This document shows, piece by piece, positions 6,438 through 64,000 of a stretch of DNA of 64,000 nucleotides (position 1 is the stretch's first letter; each line of letters begins with the position of its first letter). Location of the stretch: NCBI RefSeq assembly GCF_018350175.1, contig NC_058368.1, positions 51,895,815 through 51,959,814 of the forward strand, written 5' to 3'. The DNA comes from Felis catus. Its lineage: Eukaryota. The position numbers were made by a program, and so were the translations under genes. A model generated the notes under the pieces. The model had not been told where the DNA came from and made no database searches. It was given only the letters and a program-made list of their open reading frames with translations.

Positions 6438-6899
<462 letters not shown>

Positions 6900-8554
6900 T
6901 AGGAACCTTTGTTCATTTGTCTCCATCACTTCTTTCGCAGTTTGAAATTGGAGACTGCTGGGGAACCGTCCTCACTCTTCCTGTCTCTGACGTGGCCTGA
7001 TGTGTGGCCTCCTTCCTCTGGAAAGTGAAGGGGTTGGGAGGGGTGGTCCCTTGCGTGGTCAGGTCTTCCCTTCCTCCCTCATCACTTCACTCCTGACGCA
7101 TTATTGGCTTTTGTTTTAATTTACCAGGTAAGCTCCATCTCCAGAGCTTTTGTGTATTTTCCTTTCTTCAGCTTATTTGTACAGCCTGTCCCCACCCCCG
7201 TCCGACCACAGGACTTCACCCACATGAACGCTGTCCACAAGTGCAACTCCACTGACCGTTGTAACTCCTCTTTCTTACCCTCCTTCTCCATTTTCCCCCC
7301 AGAGCCTGTATCCACAGCTGAGGGACTGTAGATTCTACCTCTTCATTAGTTTGTGGTCTGTCCCCTCTAGAACATAAATTGCGTGGGGTGGGGGGGGAGA
7401 GGAGTGTTCACTACTCTAAATCCTCAATGCCAAGAACTATGTCTAGCACAGGATAGAACTGCAAATACTTCTGAAGCAATAATTTATCAAAATAAGCAAA
7501 TCTCAGGCACATGCACACCCTTGCCCACACTCATGCTTTCAAAAGCACCTTAGTGATACTAAGCCGGGGTTAGCTTATGTTGGTAAGTGTAGTATGGTCC
7601 AGGTAGGATTTTTTTATTCTTTAAAATTCCAGATTAGTTGCAAGGCACATATTAGACAAGCTCATGGTCACGATGTACCCCTTCTTGAACTGGAGATCTT
7701 GGAGTCATCAGCAGGGTTCCACGGAGGTGGGTTGAGGATCATTTGGAAGATGAGACTATGGAGGCAGTAACCACAGACAGCTTCCGCAAGAAGTTAGGCT
7801 GTTGAGGAGAGGGCCGGACCACAGTGACAGGATGAAAAGGGATGCGCCAGTAAGCAGTTTTCCCTTCTTTGTCGTCAGGACGTGTAAACAGTCTTTATTT
7901 TTCAATTAGAAGTGTTAGTTTCTGACTTTTTGATCTGAGCCCCTATCAAAAAAACACGTGAAAGTAAACAAAAGTGAATGCCAGAATCCTGCTACCCAGC
8001 TAGGAAGCGTTTCGTTGCAGACTTCATAAATTCTGGCTTATTCTGCCCCGGTAAGTGCAGATCTGTGTTTACCGTCACATTTGATGTGTACAGGCTATTG
8101 TGCCACCTCCAAACTAAGCCTCTGTGAAGGTTGTCACTGCCAGACTATAGGAGAGGTTTCCCCAGAGTTAGGCAGAGACTGGGTAGGATTCATTTTAGAT
8201 TCTTTGCCAGTGTGATAGGCAGATCCTGCTCTGGAAGGTGGAACATTTCTTCTTGGTAATTTGCGATCTGCATTCAAGGAGGCAACTTTATTTTTAGACA
8301 GAGTTTATCTTTTTCTCTCTGATTTTAAGCTATTCTTTATCCTCAGTGGACATTGGTCATTTTTCACTTCTGTTGCAACTCCTGCACCCACAGCACACAT
8401 GGCAGTGTGCCGCGAACGGGGTTTCCAGCCGGGGAGCACGGTGCGAAGGTCGGGTGCGTGAAACCCAGGGCGCGCTTGGGAAGGTGCTAGTGAGTTGTCC
8501 CTGGTGGGGTGGAGAACGGATGAGAGCGAGCGCTGGGACTCCTGGCAGCATTAA

Positions 8555-16540: not shown

Positions 16541-19500
16541 CGCCTACTGATGATCTCCATTTTATCTTTTTGTTACATCCTATGACTTATTTTGTAACTG
16601 GAAATTTGGCCTTTTTCACCCCTTTCACCAATTTTGGCCCCTTCCCACCCTCTGCCACTACCTTTCTGTTCTTTTTATCTCTGAGTTTTTTTTTTTCTTA
16701 AAGATTCTACATATAAGTGGTGACATATGCAGATTTGTCTATTCCCATTTTAAAGATGGGGAAACTCAGGTACAGATTGGTTAGAAAACTTGCCTGTGAT
16801 CATAGAACTATTAAGTGCCAGAGCCTGGCAAAAAGCAGTAATTAGGACAAATGTGAATTTCAAACTCACTTTATATGGAGGCAAAAGGAAGATGGTGGAG
16901 TAGGAGGATCCTGAGCTCACCTTGTCTCCCCTCCCACCACCACCCCCCCCCCCGCCGCCAGACACCCCAAGGTAACAGCTGTACTTGGAAACTAACTCTG
17001 AAAATGATGTGAGTGCTGGCAGAACAGATCTTCCACAGTTAATGCCAGAGAGGAGGACGCATGGTTGGGAACCAAAACCCTGGCAAGACTAACCACAACG
17101 TGGGGGACACCACAAACACAGAGAAGAGAGAGGATCAGACCGTATGCCAGAAACTCCAGGCACTGTGGGCCCACACTGGGAAAATGAGTCCCCGTAATAT
17201 CTGGCTTTGAAAACCAGTGGGGCTTGGGAAGGAAGTTAATTAAGATGGCAGAGTAGTAGGGGGACCCTGAGTCGACCTCATCCCTCAAACACATCCCTTG
17301 AGCTGAGGATTAAGAAAACAATCTACACAACTGGAGGAAGAGAACATGGCAGATGTGAGGTTCAGAGCTGTGAATTGGGGAGAGGAAAGCTGTGGTGCTG
17401 TAGAGGGAAGGGAACCCTTTCCCCAGAGAGTGGTCAGGAAAGGGGAGAGTGGTAGGGTGTGAGCTACGTGTAAGGTTTGGGCAAAACTCTGGTGTGGGGA
17501 TCCCCTGGGTGGCACTGGGAGACATTCCAGGTGTATATTTGGAAGAAGGTTTTTTTTTTGCCTCTCCGAGGACTAAGGGCCTGCTGGGAGCTATTGAGTG
17601 GCCTTTCAACACCAAGAAACAGAAACACATGTAGATGGCAGATATCCTTGTTGCAGCTTTTTACTGTGTGCGACAGCAGACTCCAGCCACTGGGCATGTT
17701 GGAAGAGGGGAGTGGGTCTGTGATTTACCATGCCCTTTAAGATTTGGAGCTTTGAATCCCAGCAGCGGGCCAGAAAGAGAGCAGAACTGTAGTGCTGGGT
17801 GTGCCAACTTCTGGGCACAGACAGGTTAAGAATAGGAATCTGACAAAAGCCTGGGACACTTTTCTTTGAGGGCCTCTTGAACAGAGGCAGCCATAAGTTG
17901 CCCTTAGTGGGGTGATGCCATTGTCCGCCACCCCCCCCCCCCCCCCCCCCCAGCAGCATGGTCAGACTTCACAGAGAAATACAGCACTATCTGGTGGAGG
18001 CTGGAACCACTTACACCAAGTCCCACCCACCTGTACCCTGGAGGCTCATTTCCACTAAAACATGTCTAGGTGAGAATCAGCATAGCAGGCCCCTCCTTCA
18101 GAAGACCAGCACAAATCCTTTCTACCCACTTGCTCTACAGATTATAGTATGCTGCAATGTTTCAGCTCTAGGGGAAACTGGATCTAGCTTAGGTTTTGGG
18201 TTTTGTTTTGTTTGTTAAATTGTTCATTTTCTTTGCTTCTGTTTTTGTTTCTTTTTTAATTTTCTTTCTTTCTGTTTTTCTTTCTTGGATACAGAAAGAA
18301 ATTTTATTTCTATTTCTTTCATTGTTTAAAGTAAAAATTTAATTTCTCTTCTCTCTTTTCTCTCTTCTCATTTTTTTCTTTTCTTTCTCTTTTCTATCAA
18401 GCTTCTCTTAATAAGCAGACCAAAACACACCTAGGACTAGCTTCCTTTGATTTTGTTTTATTTTTAATTTTTAATTTTATTAATTTTTTTCTTCCTTCAA
18501 AATGACAAGATGGAAGAATTCACCCCAAAAGAAAGAACAGGAAGAAACAGCCAGGAATTTAATCAACACAGATATAACTAAGATATCTAAAACTAGAATT
18601 TAAAACTATGATTATGAGAATACTAGCTGGCATTGAGAAAAGCATAGAAGACATCAGAGAATCCCTTTCTGCAGAGATAAAAGAGCTAAAATCTAGCCAG
18701 GCCAAAATTAAAAAAGCCATCACTGAGATGCAATCTTGAATAGATGCCATGGAGGCAAGGATGGATAAAGCAGAGCAGAAAATTAGTGATATAGAAAATA
18801 AAATTATGGAAAATAATGAAGCTGAAAAGAAGAGGAAACAAAGGCAGATGATCATGATACAAAACTTAGAGAACTCAGAAACTTATTGAAGAGGAATAAC
18901 ATTCATATCATTGGAGTCTTAGAGGATGAAAAGAGAAAAAAGGTACAGAATGTTTATGTGAGCAAATTATCGCTGAAAACTTCACTAATTTGGGGAAGGA
19001 CATAGACATTAAAGTCCAAGATGCACAGAGAACTCCCATTAAATTTAACAATATCCAACCATCACCAAGGCATATCATAGTCAAATTCACAAATTACACA
19101 GACAAGAAAAGAATCATGAAAGCAGCAAGGGGAAAAAAAATTTTTTTTTAACTAAAAGGAAGACAGATCAGGCTTGCAGCAGATCTGTCCACAGAAACAT
19201 GGCAAGCCAGAAAGGAGTGGCAGGATATATTTAACATGCTAAATGGGAAAAATATGCAGCCAATAATTCTTTATCCAGCAAGCCTGTCATTCAGAATAGA
19301 AGGAGAGATAAAAAGTCTACCAGTTAAACAAAAACTAAAAGAGTTTGTGACCACTAACCCAGCCTTGTAAGAAATTTTAAGGGAGACTCTTAGAGTAGAA
19401 GAAAAATAAACAAAAAAGACCAAAAGCAACAGAGACTAGAAATGACCAGAGAAAATCACCAGAAACACCAACTCTACAGGCAACAAATGGCACTAAATTC

Positions 19501-23926: not shown

Positions 23927-25619
23927 ACAGACTTCAAGCTGTATTACAAAGCTGTAATCATCAAGACAGTATGGTATGGCACAAGAACAGACACTCACAT
24001 CAATGGAACAGAATAGAGAACCCAGAAATGGACCCACAAATGCATGGCCAACTAATCTTTGACAAAGCAGGAAAGAATATCCAATGGAATAAAGACAGTC
24101 TCTTCAACAAGTGGTGCTGGGAAAACTGGACAGCGACATGCAGAAGAATGAACCTGGACCACTTTCTTATACCATACACAAAAATAAAGTCAAAGTGGAT
24201 GAAAGACTTCAATGTAAGACAGGAAGCCATCCAATTCCTCGAGGAGAAAGCAGGCAAAAACCTCTTTGATCTTGGCCGCAGCAACTTCTTACTCAACACG
24301 TCTCTGGAGGCAAGGGAAACAAAAGCAAAATAAACTACTGGGACCTCATCAAAATAAAAAGCCTCTGCACAGCAAAGGAGACAATCAGCAAAACTAAAAG
24401 GCATCCAACAGAATGGGAGAAGATATTTGCAAACAGCATATCAGATAAAGGGTTAGTATCCAAAATCTATGAAGAACTTATCAAACTCAACACCCCAAAA
24501 ACAAATAATTCAGTGAAGAAATGGGCAAAAGACATGAATAGACGCTTCTCCAAAGAAGACATCCAGATGGCCAAGTGACACATGAAAAAATGTTCAACAT
24601 CAGTCATCATCAGGGAAATACAAATCAAAACCACAATGAGATACAACCTCACACCTGTCAGAATGGCTAACATTAACAACTCAGGCAACAACAGATGTTG
24701 GTGAGGATGCGGAGAAAGAGAAAGGATCTTTTTTTCACTGCTGGTGGGAATGCAAACTGATGTAGCCACTCTGGAAAACAGTATTGAGGTTCCTCAAAAA
24801 ACTAAAAATAGAACTACCCTATGACCCAGCAATTGCACTACTAGGTATTTATCCAAGGGATACAGGTGTGCTGTTTCAAAGGGGCACATGCACCCCAATG
24901 TTTATAGCAGCACTATCAACAATAGCCAAAGTATAGAAAGAGCCCAAATGTCCATCAATGGATGAATGGATAAAGAAGATGTGGGATATATATACAATGG
25001 AGTATTACTCAGCAATCAAAAAGAATGAAATCTTGCCATTTGCAACTACATGGATGGAACTGGAGGGTATTATGCTAAGCGAAATTAGAAAAAGACAAAT
25101 ATCATATGACTTCACTCATATGAGGACTTTAAGACACAGAACAGATGAACATAAAGGAAGGGAAGCAAAAATCATAAAAACGGGGAGGGGAACAAAACAT
25201 AACAGACTCTTAAATATGAAGAACAAACAGAGGGTCACTGGAGGGGTTGTGGGAGGGGGATGGGCTAAAGGGGGTAAGGGGCATTAGAAATCTACTCCTG
25301 AAATCATTGTTACACTATATGCTAACTAACTTGGATGTAAATTAGAAAAATAAATTAGGGGCGCCTGGGTGGTGCAGTCGGTTGAGCGTCCGACTTCAGC
25401 CAGGTCACGATCTCGCGGTCCGTGAGTTCGAGCTCCGCGTCGGGCTCTGGGCTGATGGCTCAGAGCCTGGAGCCTATTTCCGATTCTGTGTCTCCCTCTC
25501 TCTCTGCCCCTCCCCCGTTCATGCTCTGTCTCTCTCTGTCCCAAAAATAAATAAAAACGTTGAAAAAAAAATTAAAAAAAAAAAAAAAAGAAAAAAAGAA
25601 AAATAAATCAAAAAAAAAA
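23927..25619 (+). mobile_element. L1 'C': 5'-truncated L1_Fc-type element in the 3'UTR of L1 B
   Basis: TSD aaagaggacatatgttg (23910-23926) / aaagagggcacgtgttg (25620-25636); ORF2 C-terminal region, felid 3'UTR and A tail. Confidence 0.92.
25358..25596 (+). mobile_element. Young SINEC_Fc SINE in the A tail of L1 C
   Basis: TSD agaaaaataaatta / agaaaaataaatca. Confidence 0.95.
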
Positions 25620-25784
25620 AAAGAGGGCACGTGTTGGGATGAGTACTGCATATTATATGTAAGTGATGAATCACTAAATTCTACTCCTGAAACAATACTA
25701 CACTATATGTTAACTAACTTACATCTGAAAAAAAAAATAAAGAAAAGGAAAAAATAAAACTAGTGGGCTTAACTCTGTACTTTA

Positions 25785-25925
25785 CGTTTTTAGCTTTATT
25801 CTTTGTTTTTTAAACGTTTAATTCCTGTTAGTTAGCATATAGTGTTATATTAGTTTCATGCATACAATATACTAATTCAACACTTTCATACATCACCCTG
25901 TGCTCATCATAAGTGCACTTCTTGA
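25785..25925 (-). mobile_element. Short antisense L1 3'-end fragment inside the L1 A 5'UTR
   Basis: gttagcatatagtgttatattagtttca...catcaccctgtgctcatcataagtgc. Confidence 0.75.
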
Positions 25926-27052: not shown

Positions 27053-30039
27053 AAAAGAAACTTGGAGTTAGATAAAATAAAGAGACAAAGGAAAATGTTC
27101 TAAATGAAAGAACAAGATAAAATCATAGCAGAAGAACTACATGAAACAGAGATAAGCAATGTGTCTGATAAAGAATTCAAAGTAATGGACTTAAAGAGAG
27201 TCACTGAACTTGAAAAAAAGAGAGTGGATAAGCTCAATGAGAACTTCACCAAGAGACAGAAAACATTAAAAAAAAACAGAGATGAAGAATTCAATAACTA
27301 AATTAAAAATACATTACAGGGCATCACCTTCAGATCAGAGGATGCAGAAGAAAGAATCAGTAATCTGAAAAAGTAATAGAAAGCAACCAAGATGAACAGC
27401 AAAAAGAAAAAAGAATAAGAAATGAGAATATGGTAAGGGGACTCAGTGACATTATCAAACATAATGACATTTGCAATTTAGGGTTATTAAAAGGAGAAGA
27501 GACAGGAGGGGGCAGAAGACTTATTTGAAGGAATAATGACTGAAAACTTCCCTAGTTTGGAAAAGAAAACACACATACAGTCTCAGAAGCACACAGAGAG
27601 CCTCTAAAAGATTAACCCAAGATGGTCTACACCAAGACACATAATAATTAAAATGGCAAAAAGTAGTGATAAAAAAAGAGAATTTAAAAGCAGCAAGAGA
27701 AAAGAAAAAGAGTTACATATAAGGGAAACTCACTCCATAAGGCTATCACCTGATTTTTCAGCAGAAACTCTGCAGACCAGAAGGGAGTGGCAAGATATAT
27801 TTAATGTGATGAAAAGAAACCTGCAGCCAAGAATACTCTAACCAGCAAGGATATCATTCAGAATAGATGGAGAGAAAAAGAGTTTCCCAGGCAAACAAAA
27901 GTAATATGGAGTTCATCACCACTGAATCAGCCTTACAAGAAATATTAAAGAAAGTTGAGTGGAAAGGAAAGAACATACTGGAGTAAGAAAATTATGAAAG
28001 GAAAACATTTCACAGGTAAAAGCAAACATTAATAAAGGTAGTAGGCTAATCACTCATAAAGCCACTATGGAGGTTAAAACACACAAGTGGTAAAATCAAT
28101 TACATCTACAAAAATCAGTAAACGGATACACAGAAAGATATAAAATATGACATCACATACATAAGATATGGAGAAGGGAGTAAAAATTCAGTGCTTTTAG
28201 AATGTGTTCAAACTTAAATAACCATCAACTTAGTATAGACTGCTATGCATATAAGATGCTATACATGAACTTAACGCTAACCACAAACCAAAAACCTGTA
28301 ATAGATCCAGGCAGAACACTAAAGAAAGTAATTGAACCACAAGAAAAGAAAGCAAAAGAAAGGAACAGAGAAGAACTACATAAACAACCAGAAAACAATT
28401 AACAAAATTTCAATAAATACATACCTATTAATAATTACTTTAAGTATAAATGGACTAAATGCTCAAATCAAAAGAAATAGCATGACTGAATGGACTAAAA
28501 AAAAAAAAAAAAAGCAAAAACAGAAACAAAAAACACAAGACCCATCTATACACTGCCTACAAGAGACCCATTTTAGATCTAAAGACACATACAGACCGAA
28601 AATGAAGGGCTGGAAAAACATATACCATACAAATGAAAGCAGCAACAACAACAAACTGGGGCAGCAATACTTATATCAGAAAAAAATTTACCTTAAAACA
28701 ATACTACAACAACAAAGAAGGACATTACATAATGATAAAGGAAATAAAACAAGAAGAAGAGATAACAATTGTAAATATTGATGCACCCAATGTATAAGGC
28801 AAATATTAACAGACCTAAAGAAAGAAATTGGCAGTAATACAATAATAGTGGGGCACTTTAACACCCCGACTTACAACAATGGAAAGATCATCCAGAAAGA
28901 AAATAATCAAGAAAACAGTGGCTTTGAAGGACACATTAGACAAGAAAACCCTAACAGATATGTATAGAACATTCCATCCAAACCAACAAAATATAAATTC
29001 TTTCCAAGTGGACATTGAACATTCTCTAGGATAGATCACATGTTAGGCCAGAAAATAAGTCTCAACAAACTTCAGAAGACTGAAATCGTATCATGCATCT
29101 TTTCAGGCTACAACATGTGAAAGCAGAAATCAATCATAAGGAGAAATCTAGAAAGAACACAATACAAACACATGGAAGTTAAACAACATGTTACTAAACA
29201 ATCAATGTGTCAACCCAGAAGTCAAAGAGGAAATAAAAAATGTATATGGCGACAAATGAAAATGAAAACACAATGGTGAAAAATCTTTGAAACACAGCAA
29301 AAGCAGACCTAAGAGGTAAGTTAACAGCAATATAGGCCTACCTCAAGAAACCAAAAAAATAAATTCTCAAACAAACAACATAACCTTACACCTAAAAGAG
29401 CTAGAAAAAGAACAAAGCCCAAAGCTAGCAGAAGGAAAAAATAATAAAGATGGGAGCAGAGATAAAAAATGAAATAGACTATAAAAGCAAAGAACAGACC
29501 AATGAAACAAGGAACTAGTTCTTTGAAAAGATAAAATAAAGTTTTAGATTCATCCAAAAAAGTCTTAAAATCACAAATAAAGAGGAGAAATAACCACAAT
29601 GTAAATAAAATGGATTATAACAGAATATTATGAAAAATTATATGCCAACAAATCGGATAACCTAGGAGAGAGAAGTTCTCAGAAACATACAATCTTCTAA
29701 AACAGAATAAAAAATACAAAATTTGAAGACTAATTATAAATAATAAAATTAAATAATAAACACCAACAACAAAATCTCTTAACAAAGAAAAGTACAGGAC
29801 CAGACAGCGTCACAGGTGAATTCTACCAAACATGTAAAGAAGAATTAATACCTATGTTTCTAAAACTATTCCAAAAAAGTACAATACTAAGGAAAATTTC
29901 CTACATATTATTAAGGCCAGCATTACCCTGATATCAAGATATTAGAGATAGAGATATTGCAAAAACCAAAAAAGAAAGAAAGAAAAAGAAAAAAGAAAAC
30001 TACAGGCTATTATCTCTGATGAACATAGATGAAAAATAT

Positions 30040-31213: not shown

Positions 31214-33033
31214 GAGAAACATGTAATTTTATACACTAATAACAGAAACAGAATATTTGAAAAAATCCTATTATCAATTACACAAACACACACACACACA
31301 CACACAATTGGCACCACAACTGGCACCAAAAATAAACACATAGATCAATGGAAGGAAATAGCTATGGAACAGAACACTTACATGGTCAATGAATCTACAA
31401 CAAAGGTGGCAAGGATGGGCTAAGGGGAAAATAGAGTCTCTTCAATACACGGCGCTGGGAAAATTGGACAGTCCATGCAAAAGAATAAAACTGGACCACT
31501 TTTTGACCCCTTACAAACACACTTGAAATGCATTACAGATCCACATGTGAGACCTGAGACCATAAAACTGCAAGATGATGACACTGGCAGTAACTACTCA
31601 GACATTAGTCTTTGCAACACTTTTCTAGGTAGGTCTCCTCAGGCAAGGGAACCAAGAACAGAAATCAACTGATTGGGACCGCATCAAAATGTGATGCTCT
31701 TAAACGGCAAAGGAGACCATCCATCAAATGAGAAGGTAACCTACAGAATGCAAGAGACATTTGTAAATGCTGTATCTGATAAGGGATGAATATTCAAAGT
31801 ATTGAAAGAATTTATACAAGTCAACACAAAACCATCAAATCATTAGATGAAATCGTAGACAGGGGCCTTGAATACACATTTTTCCAGAGAAGACATACAG
31901 ATGGCCAACAGACACATGGGAAGATGCTCAACATCACTAGTCATCTACTAAAGGAAAATCAAATCTACAATGTGATATCAGCTGACAACTGATGGGTAGA
32001 ACCCAAAGGTCAGAAATACCAAGAGTTGCCAAGGGTATGAAGAAAATGAACCCTCATGCACTATTGGGGCGGGGGGTGTAATTTGGTATACCCTATGGGG
32101 AAAACAGTCTGAATATTCCTCCAAAATTACAAAGAGAAATAACATGGGATCCATTACTTCCAAAGCTGTGTACTCACTCAAAAATATATACATACACACA
32201 TACATACATAAATAAAAACACTAATTTGAAAATATATAATCACCTTGATTTTGGATGCAGCATTACTCATTATAGTCTAGATACTGAGGAGACCCAAGTA
32301 TATATCGACAGGTGAATGGATCAAGAACAAGTGGTATACACATAGAATGGAATATTACTTGGCCTTGAAAAAAAGATCTTTCATTTGATGCAACATTAAC
32401 AGCCCTAGGAAGCCTTACACTAAGTGAAATTTATGAAATAGGATATGACAAGTACCACAGAATCTTCCTTACATTTGAAATTTCAAAAACAAACCCAACC
32501 AACGTAGCAAGTAGAATCTGAGAAACAAACAAACAAAAGCAGACTACTAAATACAGAAAACAAAGTGCTGGTCACTAGTGGGATGATGGGCACAGTTTTG
32601 AGGTTAAATGGATAAATGGTATTAAGGCTTACAAACTTCCAGTGATAAGATAAATATCAGGTATGTGAAAATTATTGCATAGGGAATAGAGTCCATAATC
32701 TTGTAATAACACTGTTTGGTAACAGCTGGTGACTATACTTATCATGATCAGCAGTTAGTAGCGTTTAGAATTTTTATATCTTTACGTGTACACTTGAAAC
32801 CAATATAATACTTTATGTTAATAAATCAATGTAAAGACTCACTTTATATTGACAACGGATTAAAGAGTGCAGGACTGGAAGCAAGCCCAGGTGATATGTG
32901 CATATCTTGTAAAGGCAGCTGTACATAGAAACAGATGTGCAAAGTATAGAAGTTGCAATGCTTGGTGAATCCAAGCCTTGTCTCATTTAGCTACACTGCA
33001 GTGCAAGGGAGTGTTTATAAGAAAGAAGCTTAT

Positions 33034-35691: not shown

Positions 35692-35773
35692 TTTAAAAAT
35701 TTTTATTTAATTTATTTTTCTAAATTTACATCCAAGTTAGCATATAAGGCAACGATAATTTCAGGAGTAGATT
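35692..35773 (-). mobile_element. Very short (~80 bp) 5'-truncated L1_Fc 3' end
   Basis: aaatttacatccaagttagcata...caggagtagatt; TSD tttctgttcttt on both sides. Confidence 0.85.
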
Positions 35774-39872: not shown

Positions 39873-42800
39873 AGGAGGCGGGATCAAGATAGGAAGATCC
39901 TGAGCTCCTCTCCTGCCATGGACACCCCTACATATAACACAACTATCTCTGATAACAAATCAGAAATTATCCTAACAGATCAGACACAACTAAGGATATA
40001 AAGAAAAAGTCACATCAAGATGGGTGTGAGGGATAGAGATGTGGGTTAGCGAAGATCCCTTTGCTAGCACAACAAAACACAAGTGGAAGGGATAGCAGAA
40101 CCTTCCACGAGGAACAAGGGTCCACGCCCCACATTGGGCTCCACAGACCAGGGGACCTGCACGAGGAAGAGGAGCTCCCATAACATATGGCTCTGAAACT
40201 AACAGGGCTTATAGTTAGGAAGGTTGAAGGACAGTGGGAAACCAAGACCCTGCACTTGAAGGGTACATACGTGATCTCACTCACTGTGATTCCTACCAGA
40301 GGCAACGGCTTGAAAAGACCCCGGGTTACACATGAAGATCCACTGACTAATTTGGGGGCATGTGCTATTTTATTTATTTATTTATTTTATTTTATTTTAT
40401 TTTATTTTATTTTATTTATTTTAGGGGCAGCGATCTGTTAGAATATTCTTTGGGGATGGAAGCACTGGTAAACACCTGTTTTGTCTTCTTCCTCCCCACT
40501 TACCTTCTACCTAGCTGCGCTGAGGTTGGTGGAAGCCATGTCTGACACTCTCCATCTAGTGTGCTAGCACCACTCACCCCACTTGGCATTCCCCTGCAAA
40601 CTCACCCTGCCAAATTGTCCACCCAGCCCAAAGACCAACCTAAGTGGGCCTCTGCCCTGCCACTGCTTCTGGGTCCCCTTGAACAGCACTGGAGCCTACC
40701 TCAAGCAGTCCTCCTCTCCGCCGCACCTGGCAGGGAGCCTCAGATGGCACTGGAGCCCCTCCCAAGCTCTCGTGCCCTGGGCCACCAGCCATATACCCTA
40801 GAATACCTACAGTAGTAACAAGAGGACCTCATGGGAAGCCACACCACAGTTCTTCCCCGCCTACCAGCATGCATGCTGGTGTCACAGCTGGGCCTCACAG
40901 CAATCGAACCAAGAACCAATCTTACACACTAGCATGGCTACAAAAGTCATGACTGGACCTCTCAGCCAAACAGGTTGGGGCCACACATGTTCACCAGAAC
41001 ACTCATAGCAATCATGACCAGAATGAAGGCCCACTAGTCACTCTACACTGATCATGACACAGCCACAACAGGAGGGTGCATGTAGCCCACCCTCAGGGGT
41101 TATTCAGCTCAGACGAGGAAAGATGTTTACACTACTGGGCCTCACAAAATATCTTGGGCATAAAGTCACTCCTTCGAGACTGGGAGATGTAAACGACCTA
41201 CCTAATACATAGAAACAAAGAGTTAAGCAAAATGAGGAGACAGATATGTTCCAAACAAAAGAATAAGACAAAATCTCAGAAATAGAATGAAGTGAAATGT
41301 AGATAAGCAATCTATTTGATAAAGAGTTGAAAGTAATAGTCATAATTATGCTCACCAAACTCAGGAGAAGAATGGATGAACACAGCAAGAACAGCAACCA
41401 ACAGACAAAAAATATAAAAGAGAACCAATGGGAGCTGAAGAATACAATAACTGAAATGAAAAATACAGAAAAAGGGATCAACAGCAGATTAGAGGACACA
41501 GAACAATGAATCAGTGGTTAGGAAGACAGCATAGTAGAAATCACCCAAATCAGAAGAGCAAAAACAAACAAACAAAAAAACAAAAATACAAAAAAAAAAA
41601 AAAAAACCCCACCCCAAAACAAAAACAAAAAACAAAGCAAAAACAAACAAACAAAAAAGAAAATGGTTTAAGGGACAATATCAAGGGTTCCTATAATTCA
41701 CATTGTAGGTGTCCCAGAAGGAGAAGAGGGAGAGAACAAGAACATTTATATGAAAAAATAATGGCTGAAAATTTCCCCAACCTGGTGAAGAAAACAGATA
41801 TCCAAGTCCGGGAAGTACAGAGAATCCCAAAGAAGAGGAATGCAAAGAGACCAACACTCACTATCACCGAAGTGTTAACAGCTAAAGAAAGAATCCTCAT
41901 AGCAGCCAGAGAAAAATAAAGCTTTGCACAAGGGAACAAGCATAAGACCATTAGCTGATCTTCAGCAGACACTTTATAGGCCAGAAGGGAATGCCACAGT
42001 ATACTCACTGTGTTGAAAGAAACAACTTCCAAACGAGAATATTCTATGAGCTAAAGTTATCACTCAGAATTGAAGGAGAGATAAGGAGTTTCTGAGACAA
42101 GCAAAAGCTAAAGGAAATCATCAACAAAACCAGCTTATGAGAAATGTTAAAGGGACTTCTTTGCGTGCAAAAGAAAAGGCCATTTCAAAAAATTAGAAAA
42201 TTATGAAAAAAAAATCACAGTGTTAATGGCAAATGTATGGTAAAGGCAGTGGATCAACAACCTATATAGCTAGTAAGAAAGTTATTCAAACAACCTAACT
42301 TTACAACTCAAGGAATTAAAAAATAAAAGAACAAAAGAAACCCGAAGTTAGTAGAAGGAAGGAAATAACAAACATCAAAGCAGAAATAAATGAAATAGGG
42401 GTGCCTGGGTGGCTCAGTCGGTTGAGCGGCCGACTTCGGCTCAGGTCATGATCTCGCATCCCGTGAGTTCAAGCCCCGCGTCGGGCTCTGTGCTGACAGC
42501 TCAGAGCCCGGAGCCCGTTTCAGATTCTGTGTCTCCCTCTCTCTCTGCCCCTCCCCCATTCATGCTCTGTCTCTCTCTGTCCCAAAAATAAACAAAAACG
42601 CTGAAAAAAAAATTAAAAAAAAATAAAATAAAGAAATAAATGAAATAGAGATTTAAAAGACAATAAAAAAGATCACTGCAACTAAGAGGTGGGTCACTGA
42701 AAAAAATTAAGAAACTCTTAGCTATGTTCACCAAGAAAAAAAAAAAAGAGGATTGAATAAAATCAGAAATAAAAGAGGGCACATTACAATTGCTACTCAA

Positions 42801-58200: not shown

Positions 58201-58876
58201 AACTCAGGCAACAACAGATGTTGGTAAGGATGTGGAGAAAGAGAGAGGATCTCTTTTTCACTGCTGGTGGGAATGCAAACGTGTAGCCACTCTGGAAAAC
58301 AGTATGGAGGTTTCTCAAAAAATTAAAAATAGAACTACCCTATGACCCAGCAATTGCACTAGTAGGTATTTATCCAAGGGATATGGCTATGTTGTTTCAA
58401 AGGGGCACATGCACCCCAATGTTTATAGTAGCACTATCAACAATAGCCAAAGTATGGAAAGAGCCCAAATGTCCATTGATGGTGAATGGATAAAGAAGAA
58501 GTGGTATATATATATACAATGGAGAATTACTTGGCGATCAAAAAGAATGAAATCTTGCCATTTGCAACTATGTGTATGGAACTAGAGGGTATTATGCTAA
58601 GCAAAATTCATCAGTCAGAGAAATATCATGACTTCACTCATATGAGGACTTTAAGACACAGAACAGATGAACATAAGGGAAGGGAAGCAAAAATAATATA
58701 AAAACAGGGAGGGAGACAAAACATAAGAGACTCATAAATATGGAGAACTAACAGAGGGTTACTGGAGGAGTTGTGGGAGGGGGGATGGACTAAATGAGTA
58801 AGGGGCATTAAGGAATCTACTCCTGAAATTATTGTTACACTATATGCTAACTAATTTGGATGTAAATTAAAAAAAA
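55242..58876 (+). mobile_element. 5'-truncated L1_Fc-type LINE (ORF2 RT and C-terminal regions in several frameshifted pieces)
   Basis: Perfect 15-bp TSD aagattacctgtggg (55227-55241, 58877-58891); ORFs 56170-56940, 56846-57478 (LFTDDM) and 57376-57927 are L1 ORF2. Confidence 0.96.
55877..56085 (+). mobile_element. SINE inside the L1
   Basis: SINEC structure; diverged TSD. Confidence 0.93.
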
Positions 58877-60238: not shown

Positions 60239-61754
60239 GGATGCTAAAGCGTTTTGGTTGTTACACTTCATTTTTCCTCATTTTGTTTTATTATTGTCTA
60301 TAAAAAATGAGGTATAATTGCTTCATCATAAGATCTCCAGGCAGACAGAGCCCTCTGCCCATATGATAATTTATATCTACTGGTATCAATAAATTATTCT
60401 CCCCCCCGCCCCCACCCTGTGTTGCAAGCTCAGACCTGGGAACTTTTGTTCAGTCACAGAGAAGAACATTAAAACATTCAACATACAAAATTAATACAAT
60501 TCCCTTGTTTTCATGAGGTGCTTCACCTTTGCCCCTGACAGAGCCTTTCTGGCACAACATTACCAGAGTATAAACCTTCTGTTTTAGATTGTTTTATACT
60601 CTGTTTATATTGTGTCAGCCAGCTGTAAGAGTCGCGGAGTGGAATGGAAGTCTGACCATTTCTTACAAGGATTTGAATGGATCCTGTTTGATCAGCCCGC
60701 ATCCCAGCCAGTCAGGTAGGGCTTGGCTTTGGTCAGAGAGGAGTCTGTTATCTGGGCTCTGTGGAGGCAGCTGTAACTCGTCCTTGGGATTTCCACCTTC
60801 TGACATGTTATTGATGTATATTATTTCCTACCGTTTCACCTGCAAGTCTTTTTGTTCTTATTAATTGGTATCATTTTTTTTTATCCTTCATTCTAAATTT
60901 TAGGGCTTAGTGGGTGCTAGAGAGAAATGTATTTGTTTAATCCTGTCCCTTCAGCTGGAAATCTCGGCTTGAGTATGTCAGCCCAGATCACGGTATCCCT
61001 TGTTTTCGCAGAACTCACTTCAGGTGTCTTAGGTGGCTCTACCCTCCTTCCTTTCTTCCTCAGATACTAACTGGCTGTGGATCTTGAACCATGCCCACCT
61101 GGACTTGCAGTGTCTGCTCACCTGCTGAGCCAGATTCCTCCTTTCAGAATCTTTCCATCAGTCCTAGGTCTCCTGACACAAGTAATGCTTCCTTGGATTG
61201 CATTATTATTCTCACCCAACCAAATCCTCAGCGTGATCATCAGCATAAGGCATCCAGATGTGCTATGGAAGATGACGCTTACCTGTGTTTAAAAGCAGAT
61301 GACAGGCTAATTCTGCCTTCTGGAAGGTCAGCTTCATCAAAACGGACAGCTACAGTGCTTGCAATCTTGTGCATTTGCATGTTCGGTGAAAGAGGTCTGT
61401 CTTTGTCTTACAGGGACCAAAAGTTCCTTCTGGTCATTGTTTTTTTAGTACGTAAAGCATCTTTGGAGTGAGTGACAAGCATCCAGGAGTGATGCCAATA
61501 GCTCCCTTCTATCACCTTGCAGGGGTTTGGTGGAGAGGGAAGGCCAGGAGCAGATGCAGACAGACCTCTGGCAAGGATCTGGGAAGTCTTGCAGGGCCCA
61601 GCAGGATGAAGCGCCTCTTTGCATCTCCTACCTTTACTTTGGTCTGCAGGCTCCAAACCCAATCTTGAGTCTTTTGAGATCTGAAAGGACCTGAGATGCT
61701 GTACTGATATGCAAACCTGTTCTTGGAATGTGTACTTTAAAATCTCTGATTTGG

Positions 61755-62776
61755 AATTGCACTACTAGGCATTTATCCACGGGATACAGGTGTGCTATTT
61801 CGAAAGGACACATGCACCCCCATGTTTATAGCAGCACTACCAACAGTGGCCAAAGTATGGAAAGAGCCCAAATGTCCATCGATGGATGAATGGATAAAGA
61901 AGATGGTGTATATATATACAATGGAGTATTACTCGGCAATCAAAAAGAATGAAATCTTGCCATTTGCAACTATGTGGATGGAACTGGAGGGTATTATGCT
62001 AAGTGAAATGAGTCAGAGAAAGACAAAAATCATATGACTTCACTTATAGGATGACTTTAAGAGACAAAACAGATGAACGTAAGGGAAGGGAAACAAAAAT
62101 AATATAAAAACAGGGAGGAGGACAAAACATAAATATGGAGAACTAACAGAGGGTTACTGGAGGGGTTGTGGGAGAGGGGATAGGCTAAACGGGTAAGGGG
62201 CACTAAGGAATCTATTCCTGAAATCATTGTTACACTATATGCTAACTAATTTGGATGTAAATTTTTTTTTAATTTTTTTTCAACGTTTTTTATTTATTTT
62301 TGGGACAGAGAGAGACAGAGCATGAACGGGGGAGGGGCAGAGAGAGAGGGAGACACAGAATAGGAAACAGGCTCCAGGGTCCGAGCCATCAGCCCAGAGC
62401 CTGACGCGGGACTCGAACTCACGGACCGCGAGATCATGACCCAGCTGAAGTCAGACGCTCAACCGACTGCACCACCCAGGCACCCCGGATGTAAATTTTA
62501 AAAAATAAAAAATAAAATTAAAAAATTAAAAAATAATGAAATAGGATTTGTCAAAAAAATAAAATAATAAAAAATAAATAAAATGATATAGTTAATGGCT
62601 GACTTCTCATTAGGAACAATGGAAGCAGAAAGACATTGAAAAAACATATTTAAAATGCTAAGGGGGGAAAAAAACTACCAAATAAGGTTCAATATATACT
62701 GAAATTATGTTTTATAAATGGATGTAAAATAAAGGTATTTCCAATTAAAAAACAAAAACAAAACAAAAAATTAAAA
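61755..62776 (+). mobile_element. 5'-truncated L1_Fc with nested SINE and a 3'-transduced segment
   Basis: TT|AAAA site; TSD aaaatctctgatttgg (61739-61754) / aaaatctctgctttgg (62777-62792). Confidence 0.9.
62266..62486 (-). mobile_element. Young SINEC_Fc SINE at the L1 3' end
   Basis: TSD ggatgtaaatttt (62253-62265, 62487-62499). Confidence 0.96.
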
Positions 62777-64000
62777 AAAATCTCTGCTTTGGTTTAGACA
62801 GTTGCCTTCACTATAAAGACAGTGGTTTTGACTTAGCAATTAAGGCAAAACACTTAAATGAAGAAAGCCCCCGAATTCTGTGAATCCCCGTTTTTGCGTA
62901 TTTACTTCCTGTTGCAAGATAGGGAAAGGCCTCTGATAATACACTTAACTCTTTTCCTTCAATTTCTGTTGTTTCTTCCTCCTTCTCTGCTTCTCTTCAG
63001 TTATTATTAGTTAACATTCATTGAGTCTATGATATTTGAGATTTAAAAACAAGTGGGAAGGCATCGTTCCTGTCTTCAAGGAGCTTACAGTCAATACAAT
63101 AGCATTTCCCTTGGAGGTTGTTATTCAGTTAAGAAGAGGAGAAAATATTTCACAAAGGGCCAGATTTTCATTTTCCATTTTCCTTTTCATTTATAATTGC
63201 ACTCTCCATGCTCTGTCCCACTTTGTCCCTGTGCAAAAACATTGTCATCCTCCTACATGAGTTTTCCAAACTTATTTTTTACAACTCACATGCCACCCAC
63301 ATTTGTTCAATCCCCCTTTAATTGTTCACAGAGAGATGTGTCATCTTTGGTTTGAGTTTCTTTGTCTTTAATTAGGAAGTCTGCCTCAAACCCATCCTTT
63401 TTATGGGGGGGGGGGGAGGGGGCGGGGGAGAGTGTTTCTTTTCCTTTCTCCCGAAATACAACTGGCTACAAATGAGCTTCTCATCTGTTTCAGATTTCCG
63501 TGTGCACGTCTCTTGGGGTTAGTTGGTTTCTTCCATTATCTTCATTAAATATCTTCTGCATGTAAATATTTTGAAAGGAAATGTGAATTGTGCAAGGGAA
63601 GGCAAGGACTTTGAGTGTGAGGCCTCTTTTTATTTGGCTGTGTATCCCATGCTACTTAGGCATGCCTTTGCCTCAATTTCCCCAAATTAGGAATTCCCTT
63701 TAGAGTAATGGCTCTGTTTATTTCATGGACGTTGGAGATAAGAAAAGACTACATAATTAGGCATGGAATGTTTCCATCTGTGTTTAATCTGTTTTTGAGA
63801 TTGTGCAATACCACAAAATATGGTTCCCCATTGCTGTGTTACATAGCAGGAATATGCAATGCTTCATACTCTGTGTAATTCAATGTTTGCTTTGAATTTA
63901 TTAATCAGGGGCATGACTTTATTCTTATTCTGGGGGAAGTTATATTGTTCTGATGAAACAAAATAAGCTTAAATGAATCCACATTGTGAAGATAGCTTCC

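Follow-up and report, generated by a model that had tools for sequence, protein, structure and literature searches.

A probable L1 3' transduction, possibly serial, with a fragment of an ancient L1 ORF1 in the cat genome

How did a single target-site duplication (TSD) come to enclose an L1 3' end, two A-tracts and a piece of foreign DNA in a stretch of 64,000 nucleotides from Felis catus, here called the window? The initial annotation proposed an L1 3' transduction, possibly serial. The transduction holds up, on the evidence of a TSD that closes beyond the cargo, the spacing of the poly(A) signal and the age of the TSD, whereas its serial nature is only plausible. In our assessment, the locus very probably records one retrotransposition event with partnered 3' transduction, in one or more rounds.

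Boundaries of the insertion

The left copy of the TSD is situated at 61739..61754 and the right copy at 62777..62792, both on the (+) strand. Each is 16 bp long, and 15 of the 16 positions are identical. The left copy starts with AAAA and is preceded by TACTTT, which gives a TT/AAAA nick context, and homology to L1 begins at 61755, the base next to it. A third copy of the 16-bp sequence is absent from the 64-kb window when both strands are searched with up to two mismatches. The number of such matches expected by chance per 1.5 kb ranges from 4e-5 (order-0 model) to 1.7e-4 (order-4 Markov model), or about 1e-4. As an empirical control, 40 of 5000 random 16-mers had a comparable match within 100-1600 bp, and the matching control 16-mers that were listed are, judged by eye, L1, SINE or low-complexity words. 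The locus as a whole displays the features of L1 target-primed reverse transcription, namely a TSD of 7-20 bp around the whole insert, a nick site at TT/AAAA and an A-rich tail before the 3' TSD. The initial annotation had placed the TSD, its mismatch and the canonical nick site correctly, and every other feature that it listed was likewise found in its place.

TSD searches around the two related L1s in the window revealed none that was convincing (best 10-11 bp, SINE-derived matches aside), so these elements provide no control for the TSD. An assembly error at the 3' junction is unlikely, because 0.99 of the words sampled from 62520-63400 are present in 20 of the 24 sequencing runs listed. 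Fourteen of these 20 supporting runs are flagged as a possible source; the other six, from two studies, are not.

Composition of the insert

The segment 61755..62265 (+) contains the end of the ORF2 region and the 3' UTR of an L1, with a BLAST identity of 87-88% to 24831-25343 and 58352-58868 of the window. The copy at 58352 belongs to an element whose ORF at 56792 matches Pfam RVT_1. Private changes at non-CpG positions number 19 in 435 columns (4.4%), similar to the two window copies, and judging by its sequence the L1 is an old, 5'-truncated copy. Its subfamily is putatively L1_Fc, the label used in the initial annotation.

The last bases of the L1 are interrupted by an antisense SINE at 62262..62486 (-), which is 94% identical to three SINEs in the window and is presumably a tRNA-type carnivore element (SINEC or SINEC_Fc). 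The TSD test identified a perfect 13-bp duplication around it (62253-62265 and 62487-62499), and the left copy constitutes the final 13 bp of the L1 segment described above. The initial annotation makes no mention of this SINE. Because it is nested within the L1, the SINE postdates the L1 sequence. Dating the two against each other was rejected, as the 3.1% private non-CpG divergence of the SINE (5 changes in 161 columns) and the 4.4% of the L1 (19/435) involve too few sites to establish an order. The SINE would have entered the L1 3' end later, either at this locus or in the source element, and with 5 changes in 161 columns these two options cannot be told apart.

Beyond the SINE, the L1 terminus and A-tract 1, the A-rich end or tail of the L1 itself, occupy 62487..62536 (+) and include two AATAAA motifs (62504, 62511) as well as two ATTAAA motifs (62517, 62525). 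This is followed by a 16-nt non-A spacer at 62537..62552 (+), with a GC content of 31% and a length like that of a TSD, which ends 22 nt past the ATTAAA at 62525. A-tract 2, at 62553..62583 (+), is about 81% A and contains four AATAAA motifs. Both tracts lack G and C and have a tail-like composition; together they hold six AATAAA and two ATTAAA. A segment scan delimits A-tracts at 62500-62536, 62553-62583 and 62743-62780, and sequence and scan together bear out the two A-tracts, the 16-nt tag between them and the AATAAA at 62728 that had been annotated.

The spacer is unique in the window. Its best other match, at 32434 with two mismatches, is preceded by no A-tract and was taken as chance. 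As had been claimed, the remaining L1 3' ends in the window, at 25343, 58868 and 25701 (+) and at 35749 and 25844 (-), lack both tags, with neither the spacer nor the foreign piece in any of the five.

Three L1 ends and a SINE are found within 550 bp at 25313-25860, where an L1 3' end whose tail contains a SINE precedes a second, short (+) end (about 25623-25760) and a third that faces it on the (-) strand (about 25844). The end at 35749-35670 (-) is isolated and very short, with a match of about 55 bp and a long A-rich tail. The sole coding exon identified in the window, at 6606-6900 (+), belongs to the SLAIN family (Pfam SLAIN, E 5e-19) and is situated about 55 kb upstream of the insertion; we take it to resemble a late exon of SLAIN1. 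No effect of the insertion on a gene is apparent.

Origin of the foreign DNA

The foreign DNA at 62584..62759 (+) is on the same strand as the L1, and its homology to ORF1 starts where A-tract 2 stops. It reads in a single frame as LMADFSLGTMEAERH*KNIFKML. Among 3192 six-frame tiles, the best three non-self loci are ORF1 pieces near 19193, 27750 and 38903, and the related piece at 27674/27750 matches Pfam Tnp_22_dsRBD (PF17490) with an E value of 6.7e-14. At the DNA level, the foreign piece aligns to the window ORF1 at 19193 with z=5.0; the three other window ORF1 references align at the homologous place without reaching significance (1 of 4 significant). A nucleotide profile of the window ORF1s has the foreign piece as its best non-self match in the window, with an E value of 0.044. 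Human ORF1p chains in the PDB match residues 2-54 with E values of 0.15-0.21. The top PDB match, above ORF1p, is an unrelated alphaRep repeat protein. The foreign piece and the right flank were each searched against Pfam in three frames, and none of the six gave a family. The identity of the foreign piece to window ORF1 is 60-67%, compared with 79% between two of the references, which indicates that it derives from a much older L1. On these alignments, the foreign DNA is a decayed L1 ORF1 fragment from the RRM/CTD junction region (end of the RRM and start of the C-terminal domain), in agreement with the initial annotation. The bounds proposed there, 62584-62746, are right at the start, but the ORF1 homology extends as far as about 62755-62760.

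A 10-nt match to the L1 terminal motif is present in the foreign piece at 62719-62728 (+), just before the AATAAA. As it is aligned to ORF1 codons, it is probably a coincidence.

The AATAAA poly(A) signal at 62728..62733 (+) coincides with the E-I-K codons of ORF1. The A-rich tail past the ORF1 homology covers 62760..62776 (+), within an A-rich segment at 62743-62780 that is 85% A. A final A-rich tail had been annotated and is present, but the first 10-12 nt of it are templated, being the A-rich sequence of ORF1 itself. The untemplated stretch is short, about 17 nt, and counts against a transduction. The distance from the signal to the start of the tail is 13-26 nt, and because the ORF1 homology enters the tail by about 12 nt, cleavage likely occurred in that range past the hexamer. 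The exact AATAAA is found in none of the three aligned window ORF1 copies. It may have arisen by mutation, perhaps only after the insertion; as a conserved feature of ORF1 it is unsupported within the window.

If the ORF1 piece were resident at this locus, ORF1 should continue on one side of it. Comparison of each 500-bp flank with four ORF1 stretches from the window reveals no ORF1 homology (z between -1.1 and 1.6), in a test of low sensitivity. The test is weak because the genuine foreign piece itself scores only E 0.044 in the profile, reaches significance with one of the four references, has no direct Pfam match and gives the alphaRep protein as its top PDB match. The profile also matches 63052-63145 (E 15); this match corresponds to the same part of ORF1 without continuing it, and was taken as chance. 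Alternatively, the locus may consist of local DNA or of nested insertions. In that case the ORF1 piece would have long been resident here, or would have entered the same target earlier, with the L1 inserting next to it. The 16-bp match would then be due to chance or be the TSD of the older element, and the spacer would be the decayed true TSD of the L1. Old L1 ORF1 relics abound in the window, the tail is partly templated, and the spacer region has a short word in common with the left TSD, all of which fit this arrangement. However, the shared word has a local score of 12, compared with 28 for the distal TSD copy; 17% of 5000 random 26-mers score equally, and the spacer was rejected as a decayed TSD. 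The TSD of the younger element should also match better, not worse. A match at 15 of 16 positions by chance has an expectation of about 1e-4. A TSD belonging to an older element fits poorly with the state of the TSD. One mismatch in 16 has P=0.57 at 9% pairwise divergence, the age of the L1, but if the TSD had the age of the ORF1 piece, 15 matching positions would seldom have been preserved (P=0.015 at 33%, the divergence of the piece from its closest window relative, and 0.12 at 21%). In this respect the TSD is far more in keeping with the age of the L1 than with that of the ORF1 piece. With an ORF1 continuation found in neither flank, we consider a local or nested origin very improbable.

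The junction could also have formed at the RNA level, with reverse transcription starting on a polyadenylated RNA of the old ORF1 and switching, or being ligated, to the A-rich 3' end of an L1 RNA. This implies that the ORF1 piece never had an L1 upstream of it. Same-orientation L1 chimeras are reported to arise by template switching and RNA ligation (bioRxiv 10.1101/2025.02.02.635956), and the A-rich junctions observed here could anneal. Nevertheless, in the chimeras described in that report the foreign RNA is at the 5' side and the L1 at the 3' side, the opposite of the present layout, and the spacer and two tracts demand extra steps. A chimeric RNA is thus another explanation to which we give very little credence.

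In the preferred reading, a partnered 3' transduction, the sequence from 61755 to 62776, the SINE excepted, would have been delivered by a single event of L1 target-primed reverse transcription. The template would be the RNA of a source L1 whose transcription continued past its poly(A) signal into a decayed ORF1 downstream on the same strand, so that about 250 bases of the previous home would have been carried along with the L1. This RNA would have been cleaved and polyadenylated 13-26 nt past the AATAAA of the ORF1 relic. After the ORF2p nick at TT/AAAA, about 800 nt would have been copied before synthesis stopped, which would account for the 5' truncation and leave the 16-bp TSD. The TSD is unique and closes past both the foreign DNA and the A-rich tail, and within it the L1 3' end and an internal A-tract are followed by non-self DNA. 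The poly(A) signal precedes the final tail by 13-26 nt, inside the range of 10-30 nt associated with partnered 3' transduction. On the other side of the balance, up to eight hexamers in tracts 1 and 2 must have been bypassed by the RNA, if they already existed. We predict that the copy fingerprints its source element.

Number of rounds

The succession of tract 1, spacer, tract 2, ORF1 piece and tail provides two foreign segments that are bounded by poly(A), the pattern of two or more rounds of transduction. With two rounds, the source L1 would itself be a second-generation copy. The RNA of its ancestor would have been cleaved about 16 nt into the flank, directed by a hexamer within the A-rich tail of that ancestor, and then re-tailed, creating the spacer and A-tract 2, and the resulting copy would have landed inside an old ORF1. 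The spacer would then be a short first-round transduction, or perhaps the TSD of the donor, and A-tract 2 would be an aged poly(A) tail. The absence of G and C from both tracts, the position of the spacer end 22 nt past an ATTAAA and the start of ORF1 at the end of tract 2 argue for two rounds, as does the scarcity of double tracts: in the window, where A-tracts have a density of 0.22 per kb per strand, just one of 27 others is accompanied by a second A-tract within 40 nt. We favor two rounds over one, with about an even chance of being right.

One round could produce the same end if the donor locus had an A-tract before the source L1 inserted about 16 nt upstream of it; this A-tract would be either the tail of an older element or an A-rich stretch that had expanded within the decayed ORF1. 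The spacer, tract 2 and the ORF1 piece would then all have been taken up by a single read-through. L1s prefer A-rich targets, and a single event is simpler than two. Moreover, the one other double tract of the window, two A-rich tracts 9 nt apart at 41560-41663 (+), is situated inside an old L1 ORF1, just upstream of a match to Pfam Transposase_22. This indicates that such tracts arise without retrotransposition, and makes tract 2 weaker evidence for a second round. Yet the tracts at 41560 contain C, whereas tract 2 has neither G nor C. Double tracts are uncommon in the window, and no homology of the spacer and tract 2 to upstream ORF1 sequence was found (z at most 0.8). One round is therefore a possible, if somewhat doubtful, account. 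Because one read-through over a donor flank with a pre-existing A-tract looks identical to two rounds, the serial reading is plausible only.

Relation to known L1 transductions

The feature is real, and it shows the characteristics of a partnered L1 3' transduction that can be tested on sequence; it would be an ordinary new instance of a well-known process. On its own it has little significance. If a donor and siblings with the tag were found, the copy would serve to mark an old felid L1 lineage and to date a carnivore insertion, and its cargo would represent an under-counted class, old repeats, because repeat-masked pipelines remove such cargo (PMC13103737). One bolder proposal is that a felid L1 source lineage, once prolific, passed on the end made up of A-tract, 16-nt tag and A-tract as its signature, that one of its daughters, inside an ancient ORF1, used the AATAAA of the relic as its new 3' end, and that a family of old copies with the extended end exists. 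We consider this speculative and unlikely; if true, it would allow the reconstruction of a multi-generation L1 pedigree that reaches much further back than those described in human and dog. No literature on felid L1 transductions was found by title or abstract start, in a search that covered few subscription papers, and supplements could list felid or carnivore loci.

Partnered L1 3' transduction was reportedly described by Moran in 1999 and by Goodier and Pickeral in 2000. The cat locus has the same layout of an L1 3' end, an internal A-tract, a foreign flank, a poly(A) signal that precedes a second tail by 10-30 nt and one TSD at TT/AAAA. The process is described in PMC13009371 and PMC6681178, and the general picture is likewise found in PMC6681178, PMC8647825 and PMC9311842. 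In a long-read study of 349 human transductions, 274 of the ends have a poly(A) signal within 10-30 nt, the majority of the transductions (248/349) are shorter than 100 bp, and canonical signals are at times bypassed (PMC13009371). The 16-nt spacer between two A-tracts resembles the short transductions of that study that are flanked by poly(A) on both sides, but those are somatic events in human cancer with known sources. The copy described here differs from partnered human cases in that it is old (about 4-5% private divergence), resides in a felid genome, carries a decayed L1 ORF1 as cargo and has a donor that is putative.

Transduction families and multi-generation L1 lineages are said to have been described by Szak in 2003. 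In the germline, about 20% of new L1 insertions come with a 3' transduction, and one 14-member family comprises a progenitor, a donor and a de novo daughter with a 44-nt transduction after an internal poly(A) of 17 nt (PMC6425141). [quoted passage not shown] In these families, internal poly(A) tracts and short tags are inherited via successive sources, as is proposed here (PMC6425141, PMC5668948). They are proven through donors and siblings, in contrast to the present putative lineage, which is inferred from one copy.

Poly(A) sites within the internal sequence of L1 were reportedly characterized by Perepelitsa-Belancio and Deininger in 2003. Old L1 internal sequence often donates such sites (PMC2553571), and at the cat locus the sense-strand AATAAA of an old L1 ORF would similarly have ended a transcript. 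In contrast to that work, the hexamer would end the read-through RNA of another L1 and not that of a gene, and its exact form is absent from all three aligned ORF1 copies of the window. For L1 3' transduction itself, a carnivore parallel is provided by the canine LINE-1 3' transductions, for which 322 loci, a group of 10 with one common transduction and "parentless" cases are reported (PMC13103737). The pipeline of that study discarded cargo that was homologous to interspersed repeats or had fewer than 25 unmasked bases, and cargo like that of the cat copy could be filtered out by it.
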